A stretch of 64,000 bases of DNA from Octopus sinensis. Its lineage: Eukaryota. Position numbers and translations under genes: made by a program. Location of the stretch: the NCBI RefSeq assembly GCF_006345805.1, contig NC_043018.1, positions 19,344,001 through 19,408,000 on the forward strand, read 5' to 3'. Below are positions 6,796-46,296 of the stretch, piece by piece. The stretch's first letter is position 1. Each line of letters opens with the position of its first letter. A model generated the notes under the pieces. It ran no database searches, was not told the DNA's origin, and worked only from the letters and a program-made list of their open reading frames with translations.

Positions 6796-7091
6796 TCTTT
6801 AATAGATGAAGAAATCAAAACGTATCACTAATTCTTCGATAAGCTGCCAGGCATTTCTGTCAAGAACACAAATCCCATTACACATAACATCAAGATGAAT
6901 TTCGATTTTGAAATTTTTCAGAAAGAATTTGATTTCGACAAAAGTATCAATAATATTACAACCAGACAGATCAATAAAAGAAGCAGACAAATGATTCTTC
7001 AATAATTTCAATCATATTGACATTTTATCTTTTGCTGATAGCTAGCACTCTAAACAAAATCTTTACTTATAACTTAATTTGTACTTTAGTC

Positions 7092-8130
7092 ATGTTTAAA
7101 TTCTAGTCAGCAGACAATTATCACTGTAAACAAGATCTGTACTCCTTTTGTACTCTAGTCATGTCTAAATCCTCCCCAACAGATAGCTATCCCTGTGACC
7201 AAGATTTGTACTTATTTGGTACTCTAATCATGTTTAAATTCTCCCCAGCAAATAACTATCCCTGTGACCAAGATTTGTACTTATTTCGTACTCTAGTTAT
7301 GTCTAAATCCTTCCCAGCAGATAGGTATCACTGTAACCAAGATTTGTACTTATTTGGTACTCTAGTCATGTTTAAATTCTCCCCAGCAGATAGCTATCCC
7401 TGTGACCAAGATTTGTACTTATTTCGTACTCTAGTTATGTCTAAATCCTTCCCAGCAGATAGGTATCACTGTAACCAAGATCTGTACTTATTTGGTACTC
7501 TAATCATGTTTAAATTCTCCCCAGCAGATAGCTATCCCTGTGACCAAGATTTGTACTTATTTCGTACTCTAGTATGTCTAAATCCTTCCCAGCAGATAGG
7601 TATCACTGTAACCAAGATCTGTACTTATTTGGTACTCTAATCATGTTTAAATTCTCCCCAGCAGATAGCTATCCCTGTGACCAAGATTTGTACTTATTTC
7701 GTACTCTAGTTATGTCTAAATCCTTCCCAGCAGATAGGTATCACTGTAACCAAGATTTGTACTTATTTGGTACTCTAGTCATGTTTAAATTCTCCCCAGC
7801 AGATAGCTATCCCTGTGACCAAGATTTGTACTTATTTCGTACTCTAGTTATGTCTAAATCCTTCCCAGCAGATAGGTATCACTGTAACCAAGATCTGTAC
7901 TTATTTGGTACTCTAGTCATGTTTAAATTCTCCCCAGCAGATAGCTATCCCTGTGACCAAGATTTGTACTTATTTCGTACTCTAGTTATGTCTAAATCCT
8001 TCCCAGCAGATAGGTATCACTGTAACCAAGATCTGTACTTATTTGGTACTCTAGTCATGTTTAAATTCTCCCCAGCAGATAGCTATCCCTGTGACCAAGA
8101 TTTGTACTTATTTCGTACTCTAGTTATGTC
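7092..8130 (+). repeat. Minisatellite: ~15 x 69-bp monomers arranged as an alternating A/B 138-bp higher-order repeat
   Basis: A = ATGTCTAAATCCTTCCCAGCAGATAGGTATCACTGTAACCAAGATYTGTACTTATTTGGTACTCTAGTC; B = ATGTTTAAATTCTCCCCAGCAGATAGCTATCCCTGTGACCAAGATTTGTACTTATTTCGTACTCTAGTT. One 1-bp deletion near 7573. Confidence 0.95.
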
Positions 8131-8629
8131 TGTACTGTAGACTTAATTAAATCTTCAGTTCTCACCACCACACCACCACCACCACCATCATCATCATCTT
8201 CATCATCATCATAGTCAGCATTTTTATATGAATAGGGAATCTATTTACAATCACTTCATGATACCCAAAAAAAAAATAATTAAAAACAGACACACACATT
8301 GGGCTTCCTTCAGTTTCCATCTACCAAATCCATTCATTAGGTTTTAATTGGCTTACGACTATAGCAGAAGACATTTGTTGCCCAAGATTCCAGGCAATTA
8401 CAAACCCAACTCTGTTGTGGTGCTTTTGTTCCATCAACACGGAATTGGTGGAGTGTTTGGTTGTTGCACCACAAAGAATATTTTATTAGGTTTTGTTTTG
8501 TACAGAAGCAAATAAAATTTGCATAGATTTTGTATAGAATGAAAGGAAAATACATACACACACATTCACACACATACACACACATATATATATACATGCA
8601 TGCATGCATACATATCCATCCATCCATCC

Positions 8630-11288: not shown

Positions 11289-14200
11289 AGTGACTAGCAA
11301 CAAGCCAACATGCAAGTGAGTCAGCTTAGGCTATGCAGATGTGATGTACTAACAGCAATCAGTGACTAGCAAGCCAACGTTCAAGTGAGTCAGCTTAGGC
11401 TATGCAGATGTGATGTACTAACAGGAATCAGTGACTAGCAAGCCAACGTTCAAGTGAGTCAGCTTAGGCTATGCAGATGTGATGTACTAACAGCAATCAG
11501 TGACTAGCAAGCCAACGTTCAAGTGAGTCAGCTTAGGCTATGCAGATGTGATGTGCTAACAGCAATCAGTGGTTAGCAAGCCAACGTGCAAGTGAGTCAG
11601 CTTAGGCTATGCAGATGTGATGTACTAACAGCAATCAGTGGTTAGCAAGCCAACGTGCAAGTGAGTCAGCTTAGGCTATGCAGATGTGATGTACTAACAG
11701 GAATCAGTGGTTAGCAAGCCAACGTTCAAGTGAGTCAGCTTAGGCTATGCAGATGTGATGTACTAACAGGAATCAGTGACTAGCAAGCGAACGTGCAAGG
11801 GAGTCAGCTTAGGCTATGCAGATGTGATGTACTAACAGCAATCAGTGACTAGCAAGCCAACGTTCAAGTGAGTCAGCTTAGGCTATGCAGATGTGATGTA
11901 CTAACAGAATCAGTGGTTAGCAAGCCAACATGCAAGGGAGTCAGCTTAGGCTATGCAGATGTGATGTACTAACAGCAATCAGTGACTAGCAAGCCAACGT
12001 TCAAGTGAGTCAGCTTAGGCTATGCAGATGTGATGTACTAACAGGAATCAGTGGTTAGCAAGCCAACGTTCAAGTGAGTCAGCTTAGGCTATGCAGATGT
12101 GATGTACTAACAGCAATCAGTGACTAGCAAGCCAACGTTCAAGTGAGTCAGCTTAGGCTATGCAGATGTGATGTACTAACAGGAATCAGTGGTTAGCAGC
12201 CAACGTTCAAGTGAGTCAGCTTAGGCTATGCAGATGTGATGTACTAACAGGAATCAGTGGTGGTTAGCAAGCCAACGTTCAAGTGAGTCAGCTTAGGCTA
12301 TGCAGATGTGATGTACTAACAGCAATCAGTGACTAGCAAGCCAACGTTCAAGTGAGTCAGCTTAGGCTATGCAGATGTGATGTACTAACAGGAATCAGTG
12401 GTTAGCAACCAACGTTCAAGTGAGTCAGATTAGGCTATGCAGATGTGATGTACTAACAGGAATCAGTGGTTAGCAAGCCAACGTTCAAGTGAGTCAGCTT
12501 AGGCTATGCAGATGTGATGTACTAACAGGAATCAGTGGTTAGCAAGCCAACGTTCAAGTGAGTCAGCTTAGGCTATGCAGATGTGATGTACTAACAGCAA
12601 TCAGTGGTTAGCAAGCCAACGTTCAAGTGAGTCAGCTTAGGCTATGCAGATGTGATGTACTAACAGCAATCAGTGACTAGCAAGCCAACGTTCAAGTGAG
12701 TCAGCTTAGGCTATGCAGATGTGATGTACTAACAGGAATCAGTGGTTAGCAAGCCAACGTTCAAGTGAGTCAGCTTAGGCTATGCAGATGTGATGTACTA
12801 ACAGCAATCAGTGGTTAGCAAGCCAACGTTCAAGTGAGTCAGCTTAGGCTATGCAGATGTGATGTACTAACAGGAATCAGTGACTAGCAAGCGAACGTGC
12901 AAGGGAGTCAGCTTAGGCTATGCAGATGTGATGTACTAACAGCAATCAGTGACTAGCAAGCCAACGTTCAAGTGAGTCAGCTTAGGCTATGCAGATGTGA
13001 TGTACTAACAGGAATCGGTGGTTAGCAAGCCAACGTTCAAGTGAGTCAGCTTAGGCTATGCAGATGTGATGTACTAACAGCAATCAGTGGTTAGCAAGCC
13101 AACGTTCAAGTGAGTCAGCTTAGGCTATGCAGATGTGATGTACTAACAGAATCAGTGACTAGCAAGCGAACGTGCAAGGGAGTCAGCTTAGGCTATGCAG
13201 ATGTGATGTGTACTAACAGGAATCAGTGGTTAGCAAGCCAACGTTCAAGTGAGTCAGCTTAGGCTATGCAGATGTGATGTACTAACAGCAATCAGTGGTT
13301 AGCAAGCCAACGTTCAAGTGAGTCAGCTTAGGCTACGCAGATGTGATGTACTAATAGGAATCAGTGACTAGCAAGCCAACGTGCAAGGGAGTCAGCTTAG
13401 GCTATGCAGATGTGATGTACTAACAGGAATCAGTGGTTAGCAAGCCAACGTTCAAGTGAGTCAGCTTAGGCTATGCAGATGTGATGTACTAACAGGAATC
13501 AGTGACTAGCAAGCCAACGTGCAAGGGTGTCAGCTTAGGCTATGCAGATGTGATGTACTAACAGCAATCAGTGGTTAGCAAGCCAACGTTCAAGTGAGTC
13601 AGCTTAGGCTATGCAGATGTGATGTACTAACAGCAATCAGTGACTAGCAAGCCAACGTTCAAGTGAGTCAGCTTAGGCTATGCAGATGTGATGTACTAAC
13701 GGGAATCAGTGGTTAGCAAGCCAACGTTCAAGTGAGTCAGCTTAGGCTATGCAGATGTGATGTACTAACAGCAATCAGTGACTAGCAAGCCAACGTTCAA
13801 GTGAGTCAGCTTAGGCTATGCAGATGTGATGTACTAACAGCAATCAGTGGTTAGCAACCCAACGTTCAAGTGAGTCAGCTTAGGCTATGCAGATGTGATG
13901 TACTAACAGGAATCAGTGACTAGCAAGCCAACGTGCAAGGGAGTCAGCTTAGGCTATGCAGATGTGATGTACTAACAGCAATCAGTGGTTAGCAAGCCAA
14001 CGTTCAAGTGAGTCAGCTTAGGCTATGCAGATGTGATGTACTAACAGCAATCAGTGACTAGCAAGCCAACGTTCAAGTGAGTCAGCTTAGGCTATGCAGA
14101 TGTGATGTACTAACAGCAATCAGTGGTTAGCAACCCAACGTTCAAGTGAGTCAGCTTAGGCTATGCAGATGTGATGTACTAACAGCAATCAGTGACTAGC

Positions 14201-16268
14201 AAGCCAACGTTCAAGTGAGTCAGCTTAGGCTATGCAGATGTGATGTACTAACGGGAATCAGTGGTTAGCAAGCCAACGTTCAAGTGAGTCAGCTTAGGCT
14301 ATGCAGATGTGATGTACTAACAGCAATCAGTGGTTAGCAACCCAACGTTCAAGTGAGTCAGCTTAGGCTATGCAGATGTGATGTACTAACAGGAATCAGT
14401 GACTAGCAAGCCAACGTGCAAGGAAGTCAGCTTAGGCTATGCAGATGTGATGTACTAACAGTAATCAGTGGTTAGCAAGCCAACGTTCAAGTGAGTCAGC
14501 TTAGGCTATGCAGATGTGATGTACTAACAGGAATCAGTGGTTAGCAAGCCAACGTTCAAGTGAGTCAGCTTAGGCTATGCAGATGTGATGTACTAACAGG
14601 AATCAGTGGTTAGCAAGCCAACGTTCAAGTGAGTCAGCTTAGGCTATGCAGATGTGATGTACTAACAGTAATCAGTGGTTAGCAAGCCAACGTTCAAGTG
14701 AGTCAGCTTAGGCTATGCAGATGTGATGTACTAACAGGAATCAGTGGTTAGCAAGCCAACGTGCAAGTGAGTCAGCTTAGGCTATGCAGATGTGATGTAC
14801 TAACAGCAATCAGTGGTTAGCAAGCCAACGTTCAAGTGAGTCAGCTTAGGCTATGCAGATGTGATGTACTAACAGCAATCAGTGGTTAGCAAGCCAACGT
14901 TCAAGTGAGTCAGCTTAGGCTATGCAGATGTGATGTACTAACAGCAATCAGTGACTAGCAAGCCAACGTTCAAGTGAGTCAGCTTAGGCTATGCAGATGT
15001 GATGTACTAACAGCAATCAGTGACTAGCAAGCCAACGTTCAAGTGAGTCAGCTTAGGCTATGCAGATGTGATGTACTAACAGCAATCAGTGACTAGCAAG
15101 CCAACGTTCAAGTGAGTCAGCTTAGGCTATGCAGATGTGATGTACTAACAGGAATCAGTGACTAGCAAGCCAACGTTCAAGTGAGTCAGCTTAGGCTATG
15201 CAGATGTGATGTGCTAACAGCAATCAGTGGTTAGCATGCCAACGTTCAAGTGAGTCAGCTTAGGCTATGCAGATGTGATGTACTAACAGCAATCAATGAC
15301 TAGCAAGCCAACGTTCAAGTGAGTCAGCTTAGGCTATGCAGATGTGATGTACTAACAGCAATCAGTGACTAGCAAGCCAACGTTCAAGTGAGTCAGCTTA
15401 GGCTATGCAGATGTGATGTACTAACAGGAATCAGTGACTAGCAAGCCAACGTTCAAGTGAGTCAGCTTAGGCTATGCAGATGTGATGTACTAACAGCAAT
15501 CAGTGGTTAGCAAGCCAACGTTCAAGTGAGTCAGCTTAGGCTATGCAGATGTGATGTGCTAACAGCAATCAGTGGTTAGCAAGCCAACGTTCAAGTGAGT
15601 CAGCTTAGGCTATGCAGATGTGATGTACTAACAGCAATCAGTGGTTAGCAAGCCAACGTTCAAGTGAGTCAGCTTAGGCTATGCAGATGTGATGTACTAA
15701 CAGGAATCAGTGACTAGCAAGCCAACGTTCAAGTGAGTCAGCTTAGGCTATGCAGATGTGATGTACTAACAGCAATCAGTGGTTAGCAAGCCAACGTTCA
15801 AGTGAGTCCGCTTAGGCTATGCAGATGTGATGTACTAACAGAATCAGTGACTAGCAAGCCAACGTTCAAGTGAGTCAGCTTAGCTATGCAGATGTGATGT
15901 ACTAACAGGAATCAGTGACTAGCAAGCGAACGTTCAAGTGAGTCAGCTTAGGCTATGCAGATGTGATGTACTAACAGCAATCAGTGGTTATCAAGCCAAC
16001 GTTCAAGTGAGTCAGCTTAGGCTATGCAGATGTGATGTACTAACAGCAATCAGTGACTAGCAAGCCAACGTTCAAGTGAGTCAGCTTAGGCTATGCAGAT
16101 GTGATGTACTAACAGGAATCAGTGGTTAGCAAGCCAACGTTCAAGTGAGTCAGCTTAGGCTATGCAGATGTGATGTACTAACAGCAATCAGTGGTTAGCA
16201 AGCCAACGTTCAAGTGAGTCAGCTTAGGCTATGCAGATGTGATGTATTGACAGGAATCAATGGTTAAC
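11289..16268 (+). repeat. Satellite array of ~72 copies of a 69-bp monomer
   Basis: Consensus AGTG(AC/GT)TAGCAAGCCAACGTTCAAGTGAGTCAGCTTAGGCTATGCAGATGTGATGTACTAACAG(C/G)AATC. Period confirmed from starts at 11361 and 11430. No ORF is listed over it. Confidence 0.97.
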
Positions 16269-40464: not shown

Positions 40465-40753
40465 TATATATATATATATATATATATAGCACCAGGTGGT
40501 GCTATTAAGTTAGACATGGCCTGGGCCAATAATGGCCGAAACCTATCAAAGTATCAAAGTATCAAAGTATATATATAAATACATATATATATATACATAT
40601 ATATATGTATACATATATGTATGTATGTACATATATGTATGCATATATGTATGTATGTACATATATGTATGCATATATGTATGTATGTACATATATGTAT
40701 ACATATATGCATAAATATTTATTCTATTTATATTGTTATATGTATGTATGTTT

Positions 40754-41832
40754 GTAGTGAAGAATTCCGGGTAGAGGTTGGGGTCCACCAAGGTTCAGTC
40801 CTCAGTCCCCTCCTATTTATCATAGTCCTCCAGGCAATAACGGAGGAATTCAAGACAGGTTGCCCCTGGGAGCTCCTCTATGCTGATGACCTTGCTCTAA
40901 TTGCTGAGTCACTATCAGAACTGGAGGAGAAGTTTCAGGTGTGGAAACAAGGATTAGAATCGAAGGGCCTTAGAATCAACCTAGCCAAAACCAAAGTCCT
41001 AATAAGTAGGAAGGTAGATCAATCACAAACGCCTTCAGGTAGATGGCCCTGCTCGATCTGTAAAAAAGGTGTAGGTAGAAACTCTATAAGATGCACCAAG
41101 TGTAAGCTATGGACACATAAGAGGTGCAGCAATGTCAAAGGAAGGCTAACTAGGAAAATAGTTTTTGTCTGTGGCAAATGCTTAGGAGCAATAAACACTG
41201 GAAATGTGCAGAGACCAACTTCTGCCACTTTCCAGGGAGACAAACTAGAAGTAGTTGATAGCTTCCGCTACCTAGGAGACCAAGTCAGTAGCGGGGGTGG
41301 GAGTGCTGAAAGTGTAACTGCTAGAGTAAGAATAGCCTGGGCAAAGTTTAGAGAGCTCTTACCCCTGCTGGTGACAAAAGGCCTCTCGCTCAGAGTAAAA
41401 GGCAGACTGTATGATGCATGTGTACGTACAGCCATGCTACATGGTAGTGAAACATGGGCCGTGACTGCTGAGGATATGCGTAAGCTCGCAAGAAATGAAG
41501 CCAGTATGCTCCGATGGATGTGTAATGTCAGTGTTCATAATCGTCAGAGTGTAAGTTCCTTGAGAGAAAAGTTGAACCTAAGAAGCGTCAGTTGTGGTGT
41601 GCAAGAGAGACGGCTGCGCTGGTATGGTCATGTGACGAGAAAGGCTGAAGATAGTTGTGTGCAAAAGTGCTACACCCTAGCAGTTGAGGGAACCTGTGGA
41701 AGAGGTAGACCCAGGAAAACCTGGGACGAGGTGGTGAAGCACGACCTTCGAACTTTAGGTCTCACTAAGGAAATGTCTAGAGACCGAGACCTATGGAAGT
41801 ATGCTGTGCGTGAGAAGACCCGGCAAGACTAG
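40754..41832 (+). pseudogene. RTE reverse transcriptase C-terminal ~360 codons (stop-free but 5'-truncated) with an inserted PHD-type finger
   Basis: GVHQGSVLSPLLF, LLYADDL, GLRINLAKTKV, FRYLG, LHGSETW, RRLRWYGHV and RGRPRKTW motifs. The listed ORF start at 40621 lies in microsatellite and is not real. Confidence 0.92.
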
Positions 41833-44804: not shown

Positions 44805-44836
<32 letters not shown>

Positions 44837-44855
44837 TTATTTATTTTATAGAAGG

Positions 44856-44906
44856 AGCTTCTACAGGACTAGAACTATTTCATTCAAATGAAATCATCAG
44901 GAAGCT
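44856..44906 (-). ncRNA. Type I hammerhead ribozyme motif (Penelope-like element remnant)
   Basis: Minus strand: AGCUUC-CUGAUGA-U-UUC-AUUU-GAA-U-GAAA-UAG-UUCUAGUC-CUG-UA-GAAGCU. 6-bp stem I, intact core, GUA site; U.U at the base of stem II. Confidence 0.7.
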
Positions 44907-44912
44907 TGCTGT

Positions 44913-44945
<33 letters not shown>

Positions 44946-44948
<3 letters not shown>

Positions 44949-45148
44949 ACTTTATTTCAAAGCAGCAGAAAATTCAACAAAACCTGTTACTCTGGGTTTC
45001 ACATTCCCATTCGTCGGACAGTTTTTGCTAGAATAGAACTGATATGCCATATCGATTCTATTCTAGCAAAAACTGTCCGATGAACGGGAACGTGAAACTC
45101 AGAGTAACAGGTTTTGTTGAATTTTCTGCTGCTTTGAAATAAAGCATA
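44946..45148. repeat. ~101-bp-arm inverted repeat centred on 45047
   Basis: Arms pair without indels, with about 7 mismatches, mostly transitions. Confidence 0.95.
45068..45115 (+). ncRNA. Minimal type I hammerhead ribozyme motif (U4C core variant)
   Basis: AAAAACUGU-CCGAUGA-ACG-GGAA-CGU-GAAA-CUC-A-GAG-UA-ACAGGUUUU. Predicted cleavage after GUA at 45106. The mirror copy on the minus strand is at 44979-45026. Confidence 0.7.
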
Positions 45149-45220
45149 TTACTCTACCCCTGGTACTCTTTTTTCCACCTTGTTTTTCCACCTTGTTTCA
45201 CATTTATGTGTTTACTCCGG

Positions 45221-46296
45221 TAAGCATCAGTTGTGGTGTGCAAGAGAGACGATTGCGCTGGTATGGTCATGTGGCGAGAATGGATGAAGATAGGTGTGTG
45301 AGAAAGTGCCAATCCCTAGCAGTTGAGGGAACCCGTGGAAGAGGTAGACCCAGGAAAACCTGGGACGAGGTGGTGAAGCACGACCTTCGAACTTTAGGCC
45401 TCACTGAGGAAATGACCAGAGACCGAGACCTTTGGAAATATTCTGTACGTGAGAAGACCAGGCAGGACAAGTGAGCCCAGCCCACTTATGAATGCCTTTC
45501 CTCCCTTGGACACAAAGACCGGTTGAGGCAAGCGAAGTCGATATAGAACCTCATCCGACGACAGACACCCATCCCAACCCCCCATGCTTGCGAAGACATG
45601 TTGGGGCAAGCGAAATCGAAATCGAAATCGAAACCGAATTGAACCAGCCAGGATCCCTGGCCTGGTGGTACGTAAAAAGCACTATCCGACTCGGGGCCGT
45701 GGCACGTAAAATACTCCAATGCGACCGTACGACAGGCACCCATGCCAACCCCCTTTGCTTGTGAAGACATGTTGGGGCAAGCGAAATCGAAATCGAATTG
45801 AACCAGCCAGGATCCCTGGTCTGGTGGTACGTAAAAAGCACTATCCGACTCGTGGCCGTGGCACGTAAAATACTCCAATGCGACCGTACGACAGGCACCC
45901 TTGCCAACCCCCTTTGCTTGTGAAGACATGTTGGGGCAAGCGAAATCGAAATCGAATTGAACCAGCCAGGATCCCTGGTCTGGTGGTACGTAAAAAGCAC
46001 TATCCGACTCGTGGCCGATGCCAGCACCGCCTCGACTGGCTTCCGTGCCGGTGGCACATAAAATACACCAATCTGACCGTGGCCGTTGCCAGCCCCGCCT
46101 GGCACCTGTGCAGGTGGCACGTAAAAAGAACCCACTACACTCACGGAGTGGTTGGCGTTAGGAAGGGCATCCAGCTGTAGAAACATTGCCAAATTAGACT
46201 GGAGCCTGGTGCAGCCTTCTGGCTTCCCAGAACCCCGGTCGAACCGTCCAACCCATGCTAGCATGGAGAACGGACGTTAAACGACGATGATGATGA

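Follow-up and report, generated by a model that had tools for sequence, protein, structure and literature searches.

Penelope-like retroelements (PLEs) of the Hydra clade are defined by RW(K/R) and DKT motifs, a CxCX5C linker, the absence of CCHH, and CxxC and CxH motifs placed around E and N (PMC8557442). The minimal hammerhead ribozymes that PLEs carry are described as mostly solo truncated copies or pairs on opposite strands lying 100-700 bp apart, and precursor processing and circularisation have been proposed for them (PMC4209133). In the PLE PAc, as reported for Anolis carolinensis, the reverse transcriptase (RT) starts at two internal sites and takes uncut RNA, and the ribozyme needs protein (PMC11167929). 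What PLE hammerheads do and how inverted pLTRs arise are still debated questions, and for these the family described here is useful.

We analysed a hammerhead motif in a stretch of 64 kb of Octopus sinensis DNA, which we call the window. The best explanation of the locus as a whole, and one that we hold with considerable confidence, is that it is a hammerhead-bearing piece of a high-copy Hydra-clade PLE, likely inserted in (TA)n by the element's own RT and endonuclease, the copy being predicted to be weakened and inert. The single locus is itself ordinary. What is new in its family is the combination of fold-backs at stem I, a fixed TATAAA spacing and an extra G, which likely point to a start of transcription at the first letter of the ribozyme.

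The hammerhead motif and its surroundings

A descriptor scan of both strands of the window returned two motifs, and it read at 44856-44906 on the minus strand a type I hammerhead with the CUGANGA, GAAA and UH core and three flanking helices. Sixty dinucleotide shuffles gave no motif equally strong, and 0.033 loose matches per window; the motif at 44856-44906 is genuine and above chance. Its parts, numbered by the standard hammerhead scheme, and the features immediately around it are as follows.

44856..44906, minus: type I hammerhead motif, with a predicted cut at 44862/44861 and activity as a prediction
44906-44901 / 44861-44856, minus: stem I, AGCUUC / GAAGCU, 6 bp
44900-44894, minus: catalytic core CUGAUGA
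44882..44893, minus: stem II region, U10.1-U11.1 with 3 bp and a 4-nt loop, as in the family consensus
44881-44878, minus: GAAA core segment
44877..44877, minus: private U at 15.2 (C in the family), causing the G-U of stem III
44839..44919, minus: 5'-truncated pLTR end of a Hydra-clade PLE, 81 bp, with 1 mismatch to the long copy L005
44847..44865, minus: predicted hairpin of 8 bp, from folding only, that takes in the cleavage site together with stem I's 3' strand
44840..44845, minus: AATAAA hexamer just ahead of the (TA)n junction, from sequence
44805..44838, no strand: target tract of (TA)n adjoining the stub's 3' end (44805-44844 in the repeat listing)
44920..44949, no strand: (TA)n tract separating the stub from the neighbouring palindrome (44917-44949 in the repeat listing)

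Stem II consists of UUC/GAA with an AUUU loop and has a mismatch of U10.1 (44893) opposite U11.1 (44882). Stem III consists of 4 bp closing an 8-nt loop, with a U15.2-G16.2 wobble at 44877/44864, and GUA stands at the cleavage triplet, the cut being predicted between its last letter at 44862 and 44861. The first-pass annotation had given the same stems, core, loops and GUA, and these agree letter by letter; all the parts that it named stand, but it left out the U-U mismatch, hinting at it only in what it said would refute the reading. Rfam gave no match at the gathering threshold and no hammerhead family among its 24 matches by E-value, and it also misses the hammerhead motif of the neighbouring palindrome.

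The stub of 81 bp starts 13 nt upstream of stem I and stops at the short end of the family, 23 nt beyond the predicted cut. Its position as an island between two (TA)n tracts, already recognised in the first pass, is borne out (44805-44844 and 44917-44949), the island measuring 81 bp. As 13 nt are kept upstream of stem I, the template of the stub was likely a 3' pLTR or a read-through copy. The stub carries no TATA box, and the 64 kb window holds no PLE ORF. The AATAAA hexamer may, from its sequence and place, serve as a polyadenylation signal. RT-like fragments, resembling the reverse transcriptase of an RTE-type LINE, lie in the window at 45219-45471 and 40579-41829 (plus strand), and 69-bp tandem arrays occupy 7072-8131 (15 copies) and 11301-16266 (72 copies), with units that differ.

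The parent element

The first pass had suggested that the motif is the end of a retroelement, and so it proved, as the truncated pLTR of an ORF-bearing PLE. An RT-like fragment lying between two inverted motifs (L033) was used to find RT matches, the best 150 of 13,023 candidates being scored, and 14 of 30 loci had a hammerhead no more than 1.5 kb away from the RT match. At three loci (L073-L075) the hammerhead lies directly upstream of the N-terminus of the ORF on the same strand, and the layout of L075 runs through an inverted truncated pLTR with tail, a pLTR with tail, the ORF, the 3'UTR, a pLTR and (TA)n, that is, with the direct and inverted pLTRs and the one-sided tail of a PLE. The hammerhead motif is placed in both pLTRs of ORF-bearing copies.

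The ORFs are 540-690 aa long, with an ATG about 139 nt past the predicted cut and a microsatellite-rich 3'UTR of about 2.7-3.5 kb. They carry YRDD and VY..YIG motifs, the RT being followed by a C-terminal endonuclease (EN) of GIY-YIG type, and the Hydra set of RWR, SDKT, CNCPDKTTC (CxCX5C), CDLC (CxxC) and CMH (CxH); CCHH is missing, the Cys pair being absent between the GIY and YIG equivalents. A profile search of the ORF against Pfam gave no match above the cut-off, a sequence search of PDB gave no meaningful match, and the AlphaFold model has a mean pLDDT of 34.7. As Pfam and PDB offered no usable match, the RT/EN identity rests on the motifs and on by-eye comparison with published Hydra proteins, and on these the element is assigned to the Hydra-clade EN+ PLEs as a new family of a described kind. 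Naiad and Nematis were considered and dropped, since the motifs agree with Hydra and EN is C-terminal here. A further possibility, that an RT family of 41% identity has this hammerhead too, was rejected, as that family bears the hammerhead of the neighbouring insertion.

Copies of the family and their variation

A DNA search of the genome itself gave 50 matches of 95-100% identity (best 40 of 908 candidates scored), and the copies often stand as outward-facing inverted pairs. To count the family genome-wide we used a pattern of 33 letters with six free positions, which had 3,761 exact matches where a control pattern had none. As the pattern fixes most stem and core columns, the invariance of these columns is partly by construction. 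A letter other than U is found at 10.1 in 3 of the 3,761 matches and at 11.1 in 5. Since the two positions are almost never changed, U-U is the consensus of the family, and the earlier view that a stem II pair had decayed and needed restoring is not supported. The true lesion of the window copy is predicted to be position 15.2, where the change would weaken stem III: a letter other than C occurs there in 19 of the 3,761 matches, 8 of them with T, and T together with the AUUU loop occurs in the window copy only.

When subfamilies were compared by eye, 9 of 23 upstream spacer bases differed as against 3 of 51 ribozyme bases, and all three ribozyme differences fell at N7 or in loop II. The ribozyme thus appears steadier than the spacer between subfamilies, which fits selection. 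Within the family no compensatory stem change was seen; the copies are young. Copies of the window's subfamily (L033:1850-2640, L031, L032 and L037-L041) range in part from 0.3 to 2.4 kb, such forms having lost internal sequence or lacking the ORF, and in L033 the RT fragment joins the 3'UTR directly after the Cys linker, skipping the endonuclease. At L032:900-3560 a second PLE, whose RT is related, has a two-armed insertion of the family nested at (TA)n between its inverted arms. Three nearby copies near 87.79 Mb of one contig (L144-L146, G000:C2) have a different upstream sequence joined at the cleavage triplet to the 3' part of the family, possibly as a chimeric repeat.

Folding and predicted activity

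The hammerhead fold was not the minimum-energy structure in any of the four copies folded, and the pairing probability of stem II was at most 0.29. The hairpin over the cut site is predicted to dominate once about 60-65 nt have been transcribed, so that cutting would be brief, assisted or dimeric; in the window copy this hairpin (44847..44865) is a candidate off-switch. The window copy itself is likely weakened by the G-U of stem III. Loop III has 8 nt with a central CUAG palindrome: a loop of this length makes a monomer fold possible, and CUAG still permits a dimer.

Ends of the element and the probable start of transcription

The ends were surveyed in the first 100 pattern matches on contig C1, of which 97 could be fetched. 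Counted from the predicted cut, the 3' end lay at +23 in 46 of the 97 arms and at +96 in 41, each joined to (TA)n, so that the (TA)n insertion typical of the Hydra clade is found in 87 of 97; the remaining arms had a partial tail (7/97) or another end (3/97). In contigs of four sequencing runs, loose (TA)n ends stood at +96 in all four and at +23 in three among the matches listed, and no joints were found; these contigs are uninformative on starts or strand.

At the other end, 452 loci genome-wide fold back on AGCT, the first 4 nt of stem I, and a further 111 fold back there with an insert of 1-15 nt. In the survey the 5' end fell at the first base of stem I in 34 of 97 arms (16 exact fold-backs and 18 arms scored at 0-5 nt) and 6-29 nt upstream of stem I in 2 of 97, both counts being hand-corrected for indel misscores; since the pattern demands an intact start of stem I, breakpoints just inside it are uncounted. 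The base before stem I in 100 listed junction arms, counted by hand, was G in 66, T in 14, A in 13 and C in 7, and a scripted count gave G in 18 of 30, unlike the genomic base at this place, which is T or A. In 53 of 66 copies a TATAAA precedes stem I by 22-23 nt; in promoters generally, TATA and start are roughly 30 nt apart. An untemplated G is an accepted footprint of the cap for L1 and SVA (PMC4859970), and by analogy the extra G of the junction arms may be such a footprint; as many junction inserts resemble short templated pieces of the ribozyme, some of these G's may not derive from a cap. Taken together, the fold-backs at stem I, the TATAAA spacing and the extra G suggest that the element's mRNA likely opens with the 51 nt of the ribozyme. 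In the literature searched (with subscription papers, Repbase/Dfam and some supplements outside its scope), no report was found of this PLE family or of a transcription start at the first base of the ribozyme.

A strong signature of cleaved templates was looked for and not found, a window at the cut site giving 132 matches and a control window 168, with no raw excess. On inspection, 13 of 30 cut-site loci were truncated at or near the cut (10 by script and 3 by eye), several through internal inverted repeats, so that a minor route through cleaved templates may exist; truncations at the cut are an order of magnitude fewer than ends at stem I.

A proposed mechanism and its alternatives

We propose, tentatively and as something possible rather than probable, that the hammerhead, as the leading 51 nt of the capped mRNA, acts as a decapping or circularisation switch gated by the downstream hairpin, and that hundreds of mini-palindromes in the genome are paired cDNAs of a 'strong-stop'-like kind (68 and 141 nt) that ran off the capped 5' end and were joined end to end. 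In the explanation that we favour, the GIY-YIG domain would nick (TA)n, and RT would start at either of two sites downstream of the ribozyme and copy through the uncut or re-ligated ribozyme; that RT read through it in one of these states follows from the inserted DNA running past the cut site, as seen in vitro for PAc. Transcription would likely start at the A of stem I, and run-off of RT at this 5' end of the RNA would yield the many mini-palindromes. Cutting would be rare or conditional, whether protein-assisted, dimeric or co-transcriptional, because the downstream hairpin masks the site; when it occurs it would strip the cap and could give unit-length RNA for circularisation. If the switch reading is true, the mini-palindromes preserve in the genome where transcription starts and that priming is dual. 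The several thousand young copies chart the element's ends sharply: two likely starts of RT, a likely 5' run-off point on the ribozyme's first letter that bears a probable footprint of the cap, and a scarcity of ends at the cut.

It is also conceivable, and in our judgement somewhat unlikely, that the same element is at work and that template switching driven by a helix or palindrome (the AGCT palindrome or a DNA mimicry of stem I) makes the junctions accumulate at stem I, which then does not mark an RNA 5' end. AGCT is itself palindromic, the junction inserts frequently repeat pieces of the ribozyme, and snap-back junctions at stem I do occur; but at 9 among the 100 listed of 132 this 6-bp snap-back product is rare against the 452 loci joined end to end over 4 bp, only 2 of 50 listed loci trace to a 6-bp palindrome that the largest subfamily has a few bases farther upstream, and switching leaves the fixed TATAAA spacing and the 66% of G unexplained.

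A third reading, that the hammerhead of the family is catalytically dead and retained as a promoter/initiator or as an RT-recognition sequence, appears improbable. The weak stem II, the competing folds and the masking hairpin would agree with it, as would the insertion assays reported for the anole PLE, in which mutating the ribozyme does not abolish insertion in vitro and reads ending at the cut are absent (PMC11167929). Against it, the differences between subfamilies are confined to N7 and loops while the adjoining spacer diverges, the core is preserved across Hydra families of several phyla, and natural hammerheads that open stem II with U10.1-U11.1 are known and cleave more than those with other mismatches there.

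The neighbouring insertion

As the neighbouring palindrome also bears hammerheads, we compared it with the stub.

44947..45219, no strand: insertion of a second Hydra-clade family with two inverted pLTR arms, the short one on minus and the tailed one on plus, with the palindrome at 44947-45147 and the tail to 45219
44984-45021, minus: hammerhead of the short arm, with a C-A mismatch in stem III
45073-45110, plus: hammerhead of the tailed arm

The tailed arm abuts the RT-like fragment at 45219 directly, without a (TA)n tract. A search for the second family gave 963 candidates (best 40 scored); its hammerhead flanks ORFs that are 41% identical in amino acids to the ORF of the stub's family, and it likewise occurs with two kinds of end, a short one at (TA)n and one with a tail. 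The stub and its neighbour had been called distinct families, and the unlike hammerheads and the ORFs of 41% identity bear this out. As the neighbour is a second Hydra family, both families target (TA)n, and the three hammerheads within 260 bp thus stem from two Hydra-family insertions with a common (TA)n target. The suggestion that (TA)n tracts collect ribozyme-bearing ends holds in so far as (TA)n terminates the copies of either family; besides this locus, one close pair was met, at L081. Within the second family (L088-L113) one subfamily has C at core position 4 where another has U, and N7 is variable. More unrelated hammerhead-like motifs occur near family copies (L127:144 and 686, L123:8406, all on the plus strand), and the one in L127 recurs at a spacing of about 542 bp with a long stem II, retrozyme-like.

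That the two minus-strand hammerheads act together and free a retrozyme-type monomer of about 125 nt, as the first-pass annotation had suggested, is very improbable: the predicted cuts at 44988 and 44862 do lie on the same strand at the right spacing (126 nt), and retrozymes related to PLE pLTRs exist in animals, but the junction of stub and neighbour was found once in the 2.72 Gb genome, the upstream motif has a mismatch in stem III and is buried in one arm of a predicted 100-bp hairpin (-174 kcal/mol), the two motifs come from different families, the A15.1-U16.1 pairing probability of the stub is 0.02 as against 0.44, 0.49 and 0.30 in three family copies, and the lack of a TATA box in the stub argues against monomer production. 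As the two families are unrelated, the cut-to-cut unit is not a repeated monomer, and the locus has no tandem array such as a retrozyme would show.

Comparison with known systems

Metazoan non-LTR retrozymes (PMC7229834; Li et al. 2026, 10.64898/2026.07.22.740005) resemble the locus in their type I hammerhead and in kinship to PLE pLTRs. Retrozymes are tandem ORF-less monomers of one family, whereas the locus is a single pLTR stub beside an unrelated family.

PAc, a Poseidon PLE (Frangieh et al. 2024, PMC11167929), is alike in having a hammerhead in the pLTR, two fixed ends that define a tail, AT-rich targets and an uncut RNA template. It belongs to another clade and its ORF starts inside the ribozyme, in contrast to the ATG well past the cut here, and the account given of its insertion places no transcription start at the first base of the ribozyme.

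The closest described elements are the Hydra-clade PLEs with a C-terminal EN (Craig et al. 2021, PMC8557442), including Hydra-1_Obim of Octopus bimaculoides, which have the same ORF order and motifs, (TA)n targets, an inverted 5'-truncated pLTR with a one-sided tail and a type I hammerhead near the 3' end. By eye, the ORF resembles the published proteins of Hydra-1_Obim and Hydra-2_Amil; from Hydra-1_Obim the stub's family differs in its hammerhead stems and, clearly, in its protein, so that it stands as a separate family, and motif searches of the supplement to PMC8557442 gave no match to it. The U10.1-U11.1 opening is already published for Hydra hammerheads, being present in Penelope-1 to -6_HM, Hydra-1/2_aJap and Hydra-1_cRog, and the ACAG/CUGU of stem III is that of Hydra-1_aMil and Penelope-1_NV (PMC8557442). 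Against the elements listed in that source, loop III is longer (8 nt here, 1-3 nt there), the tail is longer (73 nt, with 30-40 typical) and the 3'UTR has about 2.7-3.5 kb, where the elements listed there generally stay below 3 kb.

The minimal hammerheads of PLEs (Cervera and de la Pena 2014, PMC4209133) are likewise of type I and lie in PLE terminal repeats. The metazoan motifs given there have a conserved G10.1-C11.1, a long helix II and a helix III that is reduced or missing, and are dependent on dimers, whereas the family of the stub has U-U, a helix II of 3 bp, a helix III of 4 bp and a loop of 8 nt. Given its longer loop III, the hammerhead of this family may be one of a metazoan PLE that is able to cut in monomer form.
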